A stretch of DNA of 64,000 nt from Curvularia clavata (GCA_023920165.1 CP089274.1:5270001-5334000); one strand, 5' to 3'; counted from the first letter of the stretch, positions 35,135-38,969 are shown. A program made the numbers and translations. Notes: a model not told the origin generated them from the letters alone.

Positions 35135-38100
35135 TTACGCTTTAACGTCAGCGCCATTGTCAAGTAGCAGCTGTACAATCTGCTCGTGGCCTCCATCTGA
35201 AGCCGCCTGGAGTGCGTTTCTATAGCCTCCACCTTGCGCGTTAACATCAGCGCCATTGTCAAGTAGCAGCTGTACAATCTGCTCGTGGCCTCCTAAAGAA
35301 GCTGCCTGGAGTGCGTTTCCAAGTTCTCCACCTTGCGCGTTAACATCAGCGCCATTGTCAAGTAGCAGCTGTACAATCTGCTCGTGACCTCCTAAAGAAG
35401 CTGCCTGGAGTGCGTTTCCAAGTTCTCCACCTTGCGCGTTAACATCAGCGCCATTGTCAAGTAGTAGCTGTACAATCTGCTCATGGCCTCCTCTTGAAGC
35501 CGCCTGGAGTGCGTTTCCAAATTCTCCACCTTGCGCGTTAACGTCAGCGCCGTTGTCAAGTAGCAGCTGTACAATCTGCTCATGGCCTCTTCTTGAAGCC
35601 GCCTGGAGTGCGTTTCTATAGTATCCGCCTTGCGCATTAACGTCAGCGCCGTTGTCAAGTAGCAGCTGTACAATCTGCTTGTGGCCTCCTCTTGAAGCCG
35701 CCTGAAGTGCGTTTCCAAAGTCTCCGCCTTGCGCGTTAACGTCAGCGCCATTGTCAAGTAGTAGCTGTACAATCTGCTCGTGGCCTCCTAAAGAAGCTGC
35801 CTGGAGTGCGTTTCTATAGCGTCCACCTTGTGAGTTAATGTCAGCGCCCATATCAAGTAGCAGCTGTACAATCTGCTCGTGGCCTCCATCTGAAGCCGCC
35901 TGGAGTGCGTTTCCATAGTCGCCACCTTGCACATTAACGTCAGCGCCGTTGTCAAGTAGTAGCTGTACGCTCTGCTCGTGGCTATAATACGAAGCCGCCT
36001 GGAGTGCGTTTCCAAAGTCTCCACCTTGCGCGTTAACATCAGCGCCATTGTCAAGTAGCAGCTGTACAATCTGCTTGTGGCCTCCTCTTGAAGCCGCCTG
36101 AAGTGCGTTTCCAAAGTCTCCGCCTTGCGCGTTAACGTCAGCGCCATTGTCAAGTAGTAGCTGTACGATCTGCTCGTGGCCACGATATGAAGCCGCCTGG
36201 AGTGCGTTTCCATAGTCGCCACCTTGCGCGTTGACATCAGTACCCTCCTCGAGCGATTGCTTCGCAACCGCTATATGGCCGAAATAACTTGCAACCGCGA
36301 GGCTTGTACGGAAACCTGGATGCCCTAGGTATCTATGTTCCCAGTAGATTTGCGACCACACCGAATAGACTGTGGTGTCTGGCTGAGACAACTTAAAGGT
36401 GAGGGGCGCTATAGCTGCCTCTCCATCATCGCAGATTCCAGACTCTCGAAGATGCAGGCTCCAAAACTCTGCGGAGTACTCTAGAAACGCACTGGTCTTA
36501 GCGTCCTGTATCTGTTCTGGAGTGGAGCTACCGTCATCACCGAAAAAGCTAAGGAACCGCACACAGCACTCTGCAAGAGCAGTATGAGCATCCTGCATCG
36601 TAGTGAAGCCGCGCCATTGCAGGTGTCCACCAATCGTGTTGGATGATGACCGCCCAGCAAGCAGAAATTCACGCGCCGTCTGATGCAGAAAGTAGACCTT
36701 GTCATGATAGACAGACACAAACAATCCACACCATGATCTAAGTCGTGACTTGAAGTCATGCTCCTGCTCAAGGTCAAGGTCATCCATCGACTGTGTATTC
36801 TCGTCTATTTCCATCGCAACGCTCATTTCTACGAGCGTAAGAGGTCGGGTTGCTGTTAAGATGATCGCCAAGACCTTCTGGACCATCGAGCGATCTGTAG
36901 ATTTGTTGAGAATCTGTTCATAAGCTTGGTCAACATTCCGTGGCAGTTTGCTAAATTCAGATGCCATTCCCTTGGTTGTTCTCTTGACTTTAGAGTTGTC
37001 AAAGGCTTCTTCTAGATAGTCAAACACAAGATAAACCCACAAGTAGGTTCGGTGCTCCATCTTAAGCAACTGTTCTTCTAGGCACGCCTTGATCTCGCCT
37101 GAAAGCCTTTTCTCTTTTGCAAACTGGTCCACTCGGTATCGTATGACACAGTTCACTTCTTGGCTAATGGTCTCTGACTCGTCTTCCCCAGGTATGCGAA
37201 TGCTTGGAATGGCTTCAGAGAGACGGTGCAGTTCGGACAAAATATGCTCATACGGCCGGCTTGTCATGAATATCTTCAACTTTGCGTTGCTCGATTCAAC
37301 ATTCAAAATTTGGGTCTCCAGTTGTCGCATAAGATCTTTTGTTTCCGACTCGGCGCACTCATCTAACGCGTCCAGGACGATGGTAACAGATCCAGCATTA
37401 GCATCCTGTACCGCATCTCCAAAGACACTCCAGAGCGAGCTTGTCGAGTTCGCTAGACCTTCACCGTCCTTGTCGTACTGTTTCATAGCATGCACAAGGA
37501 GACTTGGGTTTTGCGAAAACAGCTGGTGCAGCAGAGCACAGAGCGCTTCGCGTACTGAGTCCTGCAACTGATCTTTGAAGAAGAAGTAGCACACCGTCGA
37601 CGAACCTGGCAAGACATGGTCAATCAGATACTTGGATAGCACTGACTTGCCACACCCAGGGTCTGCTGACACAAGCAGCGGGCCTGAGTCCTTCTGCTTC
37701 CACTCTTGGAAGTGAGGGTGGTTAAGGAACCACATGCATGTACCCTCTAGTCTGTCGGCTATGCGGTTTTTGTACCACTCGTAGGTAGCGTCTTCCGTGC
37801 TCTTGGTGAGCCGAAACAGCTGGAGACACTTTGCTTGTCGATCAGACAGCTTCTGGTGGTGTTCCTCTTTCTTCATGTCAAGTATCCCCTGGGAAATGGC
37901 TAGTCCATCTCTTGCGATATTTCTATGGTCTTCCGCAACTTTATGAAGGTCTATCGCGAAGGAAATGAATCAGTACGTATTGCTAAAACAACTAAGAGAC
38001 CTGCTATAACTAACCGGATAAGGCTTCACCAATCCTCCTTTCGGCTTCGACCATGTTTGGCGGTATCACGGACAGCACCTCCTTTGCATACGCTGCTGCT

Positions 38101-38969
38101 GCCCCCGCAGCATACGGCTGCCAACGCTTGTTCTTGTGCGAGTCGGCGTAGTCGCAGATGCCGCGGATCACCAGACATGGGAAGCTGTTCATCAGCCCTG
38201 CCGCCTCCATCTCGAAGCAGAGCACTCCGCCAAGTTTTGCGCTGATTGTGTCTCTTTCCGCTGCACTCTTCATAACCAGGTTGCCCGAGGCGATAGTCCC
38301 ATAGTGCACCAACACTTCCTGATGTCGTGCCTCGCGAACTACTATATGATCTTGATTGCACTTCGAACATGTTGCTCCTCCTTCATGATCATAGTCAGGT
38401 TCGAAAAGAACATCTGAGCCAGCGGCTTCGCGGCTGAAGCCTGGCAGATTTTCGAGCTTAGCAAGATGCTCTATAAATCTACCTTTTCCTCTTATGTGAT
38501 GAGCCCGCACTTTCGCAACAGCATTTAGCAGTATCTTTGGTGGCGAGTTGAGCGATCCTGTTCGCTGGAACTCGCCCGGAGTGGTCTTGCCGAAGTCGTA
38601 CTGCACTACCCCACCATGAATACCGAGCGGCTTGCTAACCACAACATCACCAAGACGAATATCTGCCTCTTCACTGGGGACGCCGCCTCCGATACCGACC
38701 ATCAAACCAAACCGAGCTGAAGTGAACGTTGCCTTCATCTGCAAAGCGACGTCTGCGGCTGAGTTGGTGCCCATCTGGCCTTCTGGCAGGCAAGCAATGA
38801 CAACGTTATGCTCGCCGATGCGTCCGCATGTATATATGTTGGTATCATGGGCATCGTATGGAGGCGTGTCGTGCTCTTCGTCGAGCATCTCCTGCGCCGC
38901 GGCGAGCTCGATCCAAAGCGCACACACCCATCCGACGGTGTAGTCTTCGCGACGCAGTTCGGTCGGCAT
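35135..38969 (-). CDS. Fungal NLR: PNP_UDP_1 nucleoside phosphorylase - NACHT - ankyrin repeats, about 1256 aa, 2 exons
   Basis: Exon 1 (38969-38015): DYTVGWVCAL..ELAAA, LMVGIGGG, DIRLGDVVVS, CFEMEAAG, RGICDYADSHKNK. A 64-nt GT-AG intron (38014-37951) keeps the frame into exon 2, which has Walker A ADPGCGKS, Walker B IVLDALDEC, FMTSRP, YLWV, FLHQTAREFL and an ankyrin array. Confidence 0.93.
35156..36244 (-). repeat. Eleven tandem 99-bp ankyrin-coding repeats with high internal conservation
   Basis: Unit GADVNAQGGxxxNALQAASxxGHEQIVQLLLDN x11, clearly repeated at the nucleotide level. Confidence 0.97.

Follow-up and report, generated by a model that had tools for sequence, protein, structure and literature searches.

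A spliced PNP_UDP-NACHT-ankyrin receptor gene of Curvularia clavata and the conserved intron behind its putative ATP-destroying effector domain

The window analyzed here, a stretch of 64,000 nucleotides from Curvularia clavata, encodes on its minus strand an NLR-type receptor that an ORF track divides into two reading frames. Exon 1 (38969-38015, 955 nt) encompasses the whole PNP_UDP effector domain, of the MTAN fold (residues 1-318), whereas exon 2 (37950-35135, 2816 nt) encodes the NACHT-type ATPase, the helical and winged-helix domains, the ankyrin array and the stop codon. The two are separated, at the border of the PNP and NACHT parts, by a 64-nt phase 1 intron (38014-37951) with a GTTAGT donor, a TAG acceptor and a branch-like site, TACTGAT (37975-37969). 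Upstream of the gene, on the same strand, there is a TATA-like box, TATAAAA (39119-39125), which we infer to be a promoter element; an RNA-like contig of the run X11 reaches 39102.

The original prediction, made from the sequence, held that the two ORFs join in frame through the 64-nt intron, and the joined exons indeed encode 1256 amino acids with a single terminal stop. There are, however, 23 GT..AG pairs within the gap between the ORFs that keep the frame open, this intron among them, and therefore the open frame alone is weak evidence; the 22 other pairs were rejected, the RNA joint that matches the locus being that of the 64-nt intron. Four sequencing runs were compared over positions 36260-43500, their RNA status being a guess of the tool. 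In two of the four (X11 and X16, from two studies), contigs join 37950 to 38015 exactly, so that the check across 38015/37950 proposed with the prediction returned the expected spliced joint. Both of these runs likewise lack a control intron (42862-42967) of a neighboring gene and leave the intergenic region 39164-40131 without any cover, and thus behave as RNA. By contrast, a contig of the DNA run X4 crosses the 64-nt intron with no differences; the remaining run, X23, contributed just two 151-nt pieces, both in exon 1. Furthermore, the spliced product has an exact match in a public protein of 1256 aa (P0005), which its source lists as a hypothetical protein of Curvularia clavata. Because RNA contigs skip the intron and this protein matches the joined frame, the split into two ORFs is an artefact that exists only in the intron-blind ORF track: the gene is intact, spliced and expressed.

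In the spliced protein, GIGGG is found at residue 92, MEAAG at 254, RGICDY at 269, ADPGCGKS at 414 and VLDALDE at 510, and thus all the PNP and Walker motifs that had been reported as intact are present. The order PNP_UDP, NACHT, ankyrin in one protein is borne out by Pfam and by the joined frame. The expected family assignments stood for PF01048 and for the ankyrin repeats, but PF05729, the NACHT family itself, gave no match at E<=0.001 in the Pfam scan; the P-loop domain (37256-37744, minus strand) is matched instead by NPHP3_N (PF24883, E 3e-41). It contains Walker A, ADPGCGKS (37666-37643), and Walker B, VLDALDE (37378-37358), and is followed by a DUF7069 helical domain and a winged-helix domain (PF22939/PF25521; 36650-37168), all on the minus strand. 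The sequence TIVLDALDE fits the NACHT Walker B consensus hhhhD[GAS]hDE (PMC12258605) and, together with a Walker A of the GK[ST] form and the winged-helix domain, places the protein among the NACHT-type NLRs. An N-terminal effector, a nucleotide-binding domain and C-terminal repeats in one polypeptide make up the tripartite STAND architecture. Where the prediction saw a variant Walker A, the wider comparison points the other way: ADPGCGKS is the norm of the subfamily, present in 103 of the 108 homologs of the NACHT region, and hence is not unusual; DALDE is present in all 108.

Exon 1 matches PF01048 (PNP_UDP_1) with an E value of 7e-12, and an AlphaFold2 model of the PNP domain, built from a 70-row alignment, reached a pLDDT of 89.2 and a pTM of 0.91. 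The structural matches listed by Foldseek, with identities of 14-18%, were nucleosidases for MTA/SAH or futalosine; the fold is shared with MTAN/MtnN structures (1zos, 4bmx, 1nc1) at query-normalized TM scores of 0.52-0.60. In a profile alignment to 1zos_A, with residue numbers counted from the printed alignment, Glu21 (38907-38909, minus strand) corresponds to Glu12 of MTAN, and Met254-Glu255, Arg269 and Asp273 (38151-38210, minus strand) to Met173-Glu174, Arg193 and Asp197. We take Glu12 to be the water-activating residue, with Glu21 as its equivalent here, and the other four residues of MTAN presumably have catalytic roles as well; an E12Q mutant is named in the title of a PDB entry among the structural matches. 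Glu21 and Arg269 are invariant in all 79 relatives assembled as described below, the columns of Met254, Glu255 and Asp273 being partly fixed by the motif filter used for this set. Thus, the modeled PNP domain is predicted to fold as an MTA/SAH nucleosidase with the catalytic Glu, Arg and Asp intact.

The profile models are less discriminating. The PADLOC model 'Effector, PN-superfamily' scored 58.9 bits (E 8e-17) and the NCBIfam MTAN model 58.4 bits, far under the cut-off of 169 that defines the MTAN (MtnN) equivalog; given that the two scores are alike, the substrate cannot be read from the profiles. The combination of the PF01048 fold with a catalytic Asp, which characterizes Cap17-like effectors, is present, and NLRN, Cap17 and DtcC were not among the PDB matches listed for the domain. 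Compared to MTAN, the PNP domain has, besides the NLR fusion, about 80 extra residues that include a conserved H-x5-C-x2-C insert. Across 70 fungal PNP domains, conservation is 90% or more for H195, C201 and C204 and complete for C251; these residues (195-204 and 251; approximately 38387-38217 in the window) lie within or near the insert absent from MTAN and form a possible metal site.

The C-terminal sensor is an internally highly conserved array of 11 ankyrin repeats, each 33 aa long (35132-36240, minus strand; TRF and Pfam). TRF reports a period of 99, 11.2 copies and 87% matches, Pfam ankyrin families match exon 2 with E values down to 5e-81, and the pairwise DNA identity of the repeats is 81-99% (mean, 87.6%). 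Variation is concentrated in five hypervariable columns (repeat positions 2-4 and 12-13), chosen post hoc from the same data, at which pN/pS reaches 3.8, versus 0.11 for the framework of the repeats. The DNA identity combined with the pN/pS contrast corresponds to the description of HIC (high internal conservation) NLRs, in which the identity of the repeats is 80-100% and hypervariable positions are few, and the columns that vary here also vary in the homologs P0123, P0125, P0128 and P0130. The near-identity of the repeats and their hypervariable positions had not figured in the original prediction, nor had the divergent copy described below. When the repeats were compared with other loci of the same genome, the best non-self match was 78%, and thus there is no sign of recent exchange. 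This genome has further long ankyrin arrays with repeats of this type, at G000:C2:727864-730037, C4:873883-876873 and C2:367030-367939, which are 68-78% identical to the present one. The PNP and NACHT parts resemble the whole window in their RIP indices; in the ankyrin array, TpA/ApT is 1.3 and CpA depletion is absent.

The X11 and X16 runs are RNA-like and come from another strain, and the comparison with them covers the region outside the repeat array (36260-43500). Their contigs differ from the receptor gene by 76 of 1270, 43 of 933 and 45 of 1011 letters (4.5-6.0%), compared to 21 of 2197 and 4 of 534 (0.7-1.0%) in the neighboring inositol-polyphosphate-kinase gene, whereas the X4 DNA pieces are near-identical to the receptor gene. 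At least 36 of the 76 differences of one contig fall into the segment that precedes the sensor (residues 773-870; 36296-36587, minus strand), where 30 codons are changed, 20 non-synonymously and 10 synonymously, with no stops. These approximately 5% divergent contigs may represent a paralog rather than an allele; high diversity of such receptors is documented (PMC13449251). In addition, X11 and X16 contain another abundant PNP-NACHT transcript, which is about 90% identical to the present gene and spliced at the equivalent point (window 37509-38229), for which no counterpart was identified in the C. clavata genome, a hint of presence/absence variation.

Overall, the gene belongs, as an ordinary member, to a very large, well-described receptor family. 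At least 7986 longer homologs were found among the 8000 candidates scored, and the C. clavata genome (G000) itself contains 21 PNP matches, which we assigned to 17 loci, and the NACHT region has 51 matches there. As the prediction had stated, PNP_UDP is a common N-terminus of fungal NLRs, accounting for about 20% of the annotated ones (PMC4986451), and PNP/NACHT/ANK proteins with conserved repeats were described in 2014 (PMC4986451). The Podospora protein Pa_3_8560 shows the same three-domain order and, in its repeats, five positions under positive selection, located on the hairpin and the inner helix (PMC4986451); receptors of this type resemble the present one in domain order, in five variable repeat positions and perhaps in high allelic diversity, a likeness that may or may not reflect orthology, and have 7 to more than 16 near-identical ankyrin repeats versus 11 here. 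The HNWD proteins het-e and het-d likewise combine a NACHT domain with near-identical repeats and few hypervariable positions, but have a WD40 sensor, a HET (TIR-like) effector and a proven role in allorecognition (PMC13449251).

Several of the other PNP loci of this genome depart from the receptor architecture. Two are stand-alone PNP genes (L033, G000:C2:677081-678037; L034, G000:C3:1984459-1985421) with short N/Q/G-rich C-terminal tails that look like amyloid signaling motifs, a class judged by eye; stand-alone PNP effectors with amyloid motifs are known (PMC9815663). At another locus (L022, G000:C1:2705923-2706873), one frame of 781 aa holds the PNP domain fused without an intron to a Trp-rich repeat domain of about 380 aa, which may be a lectin-like propeller. 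Four PNP paralogs (L027, L029, L035, L036) are interrupted by a stop or a frame change, consistent with birth-and-death turnover. The neighborhood of the receptor gene, examined over 28850-63000, is ordinary, with genes for an epoxide hydrolase, an inositol polyphosphate kinase, a UNC45-type protein and a cytochrome P450, and a long LRR-containing gene at 48187-53835; the long ORFs scanned in this span matched neither a second NLR nor a transposon family. The adjoining gene (33442-34545, minus strand) encodes a homolog of Class-I (Ura1-like) dihydroorotate dehydrogenases (PF01180; best NCBIfam match PRK02506, below the cut-off), and an Alternaria member of its family features in a paper whose title speaks of identifying dihydrouracil oxidases (PMC9585004). 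At 27790-27861, a 16-nt unit is repeated in tandem (4.5 copies, 98% matches).

Taken by analogy with characterized systems, the architecture suggests that the receptor probably kills the cell by destroying ATP once its variable ankyrins bind a target. Under the STAND/NLR model, the ankyrins would keep the NACHT domain off until the variable concave face binds a non-self ligand; nucleotide exchange would then lead to oligomerization and bring the PNP domains together. By analogy with NLRN, Cap17 and DtcC, the PNP domain would hydrolyze the N-glycosidic bond of ATP and, less strongly, of dATP to give adenine and ribose-5'-triphosphate, and the cell would arrest or die, while repeat shuffling would renew the specificity. 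We consider this course of events, from ligand binding at the ankyrin face through release and oligomerization of the NACHT domain to cleavage of ATP and arrest or death, to be quite probable as a whole, and ATP depletion by this PNP domain appears likely.

The ATP-nucleosidase reading is supported by a stronger precedent than the one initially cited, namely, NLRN of Hyaloscypha variabilis, the PNP domain of which is toxic in E. coli, prefers ATP over dATP and is poorly active on other adenylates (bioRxiv 10.1101/2023.01.24.525353); PNP_UDP was linked to ATP nucleosidase already in a review (PMC10197012). NLRN has, like the present protein, a PF01048 effector of about 310 aa with the catalytic Asp motif at the N-terminus of an NLR, but differs, by description, in having TPRs instead of ankyrins. 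Cap17 of CBASS and DtcC of Detocs, likewise compared by description, differ in that their activation depends on a cyclic nucleotide or on phosphorylation. The available text of the literature surveyed contains no full-length PNP-NACHT-ANK receptor with a demonstrated ligand or ATP-depletion phenotype.

The main rival, which we regard as unlikely, is that the PNP domain acts as an MTA/SAH-type nucleosidase, or on some other adenine substrate, and would signal or disturb bacterial quorum-sensing chemistry instead of draining ATP. This activity was proposed by Dyrka 2014 for the PNP_UDP domains of Podospora (PMC4986451), and every structural match listed for the domain is an MTA/SAH or futalosine nucleosidase. 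Against it stand the low identity to the MTANs and the score far under the MTAN cut-off, as well as the preference for ATP of the one fungal NLR PNP domain that was tested (bioRxiv 10.1101/2023.01.24.525353).

The intron behind the PNP domain turned out to be a feature of the family. We pooled 78 metagenome loci and 16 paralogous regions with the window itself (95 in total); the C-terminal motif was present in 88, and restriction to near-full-length loci and then to those below 95% identity reduced the set to 84 and finally to 79. A phase 1 donor is located 47-55 codons past the motif in 44 of these 79 relatives, 25 of these donors being GTTAGT and 8 GTCAGT; these counts come from a donor-only scan, so that each acceptor further downstream in the relatives is a putative one. 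Apart from the window, 43 loci carry such a donor; a long downstream frame was available for 36 of them, and the partners, assigned from open frames rather than transcripts, comprise 17 NACHT-type, 12 NB-ARC/TPR, 2 DUF7779, 2 C2H2 zinc finger and 1 WD40 modules, with 2 left without a match. On a FastTree tree of 33 PNP rows, the partner type does not cluster (12 changes versus a shuffled mean of 13.1, with values as low in 65 of 200 shuffles). Six of the 313 pairs with different partners have the first 30 letters of the intron closer than in any shuffle while the downstream DNA is at background: for L088 (NACHT) and L079 (NB-ARC), the likeness covers approximately these 30 letters, whereas for L081 (NB-ARC) and L057 (zinc finger) it extends approximately to the acceptor. 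At L057:3166-3801 and L091:1061-1696, C2H2 zinc-finger repeats come after the PNP exon and the conserved intron, and no NB domain was detected in this frame; the introns of these two loci are nearly identical although their PNP domains are apart on the tree.

Judging from such sequence comparison, the pattern is consistent with a PNP exon-plus-intron cassette that is swapped between partners, the intron marking the putative edge at which, in different members of the family, the cassette meets different downstream modules. That PNP effectors travel in this form onto NACHT, NB-ARC, zinc-finger or WD40 modules seems to us slightly favored over the opposite, and gene conversion between PNP exons would give a similar pattern. 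We found no description of the post-PNP intron in the openly accessible literature surveyed, including the accessible text of PMC12258605, PMC13449251, PMC4986451 (exon and splice terms) and PMC9815663.

Being in phase 1, the GTTAGT donor holds an in-frame TAG, and consequently unspliced RNA would yield a 319-aa PNP-only product, translation ending at the very border of the domain. A further explanation of the intron is thus that this donor is a switch, with intron retention under stress, viral attack or spliceosome inhibition freeing the 319-aa effector independently of the sensor; we consider it improbable, clearly more so than the alternative substrate. The stop is not peculiar to this gene: among the metagenome loci (GICDY motif present in 76 of 78) whose frame stops 45-60 aa past GICDY, 27 of 37 stop inside a phase 1 GT-TAG/TAA/TGA. 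A pyrimidine, T or C, occupies position +3 in 36 of the 44 donors (0.82), as opposed to the canonical fungal donor GURWGY (PMC9024468), and PNP domains expressed on their own are toxic in E. coli (bioRxiv 10.1101/2023.01.24.525353). The rarity of GTTAG donors rests on one paper's consensus and on a noisy control, flanking DNA, in which GTAAG elements alone exceed shuffles (33 versus 18.6) and the T form does not stand out (22 versus 21.2). The controls did not reveal special selection on the donor: 23 of 78 fourfold-degenerate columns keep their purine/pyrimidine class equally well, 8 of 78 match the single-base conservation of position +3, and intron position +9 is A in exactly as many donors as +3 is T (27 of 44, 0.61). 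With such positions as well conserved as the donor, shared ancestry can explain it. On a quick tree of donor states, the TAG rows do not cluster (24 changes versus a shuffled mean of 22.6). Moreover, the spliced joint lies within an X16 contig that continues without a break from 39025, and none of the RNA pieces listed holds the intron, contigs being prone to drop rare forms. A transcript that retained the intron would have a long 3' UTR and would probably be degraded. If the switch were real, failed or regulated splicing would free an ATP-destroying enzyme, a death switch independent of the sensor with the intron as a conserved control point.

Finally, that the locus represents two separate genes or a decaying pseudogene is very improbable: exon 2 does have its own ATG (37876), and the same genome harbors the stand-alone PNP genes and broken paralogs mentioned above, but the exact spliced joint in two studies refutes two genes as the main form, and there is no stop or frameshift in the frame, the framework pN/pS is low and RIP-type depletion is absent from the PNP and NACHT parts.

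For the probable function as an ATP-destroying receptor, the gene is a clean test object, being expressed and intact and having a divergent copy in another strain. More useful than the single gene, however, is the observation at the level of the family: a conserved intron in front of varied partners would provide a concrete route for the combinatorial assortment of domains noted by Dyrka 2014.
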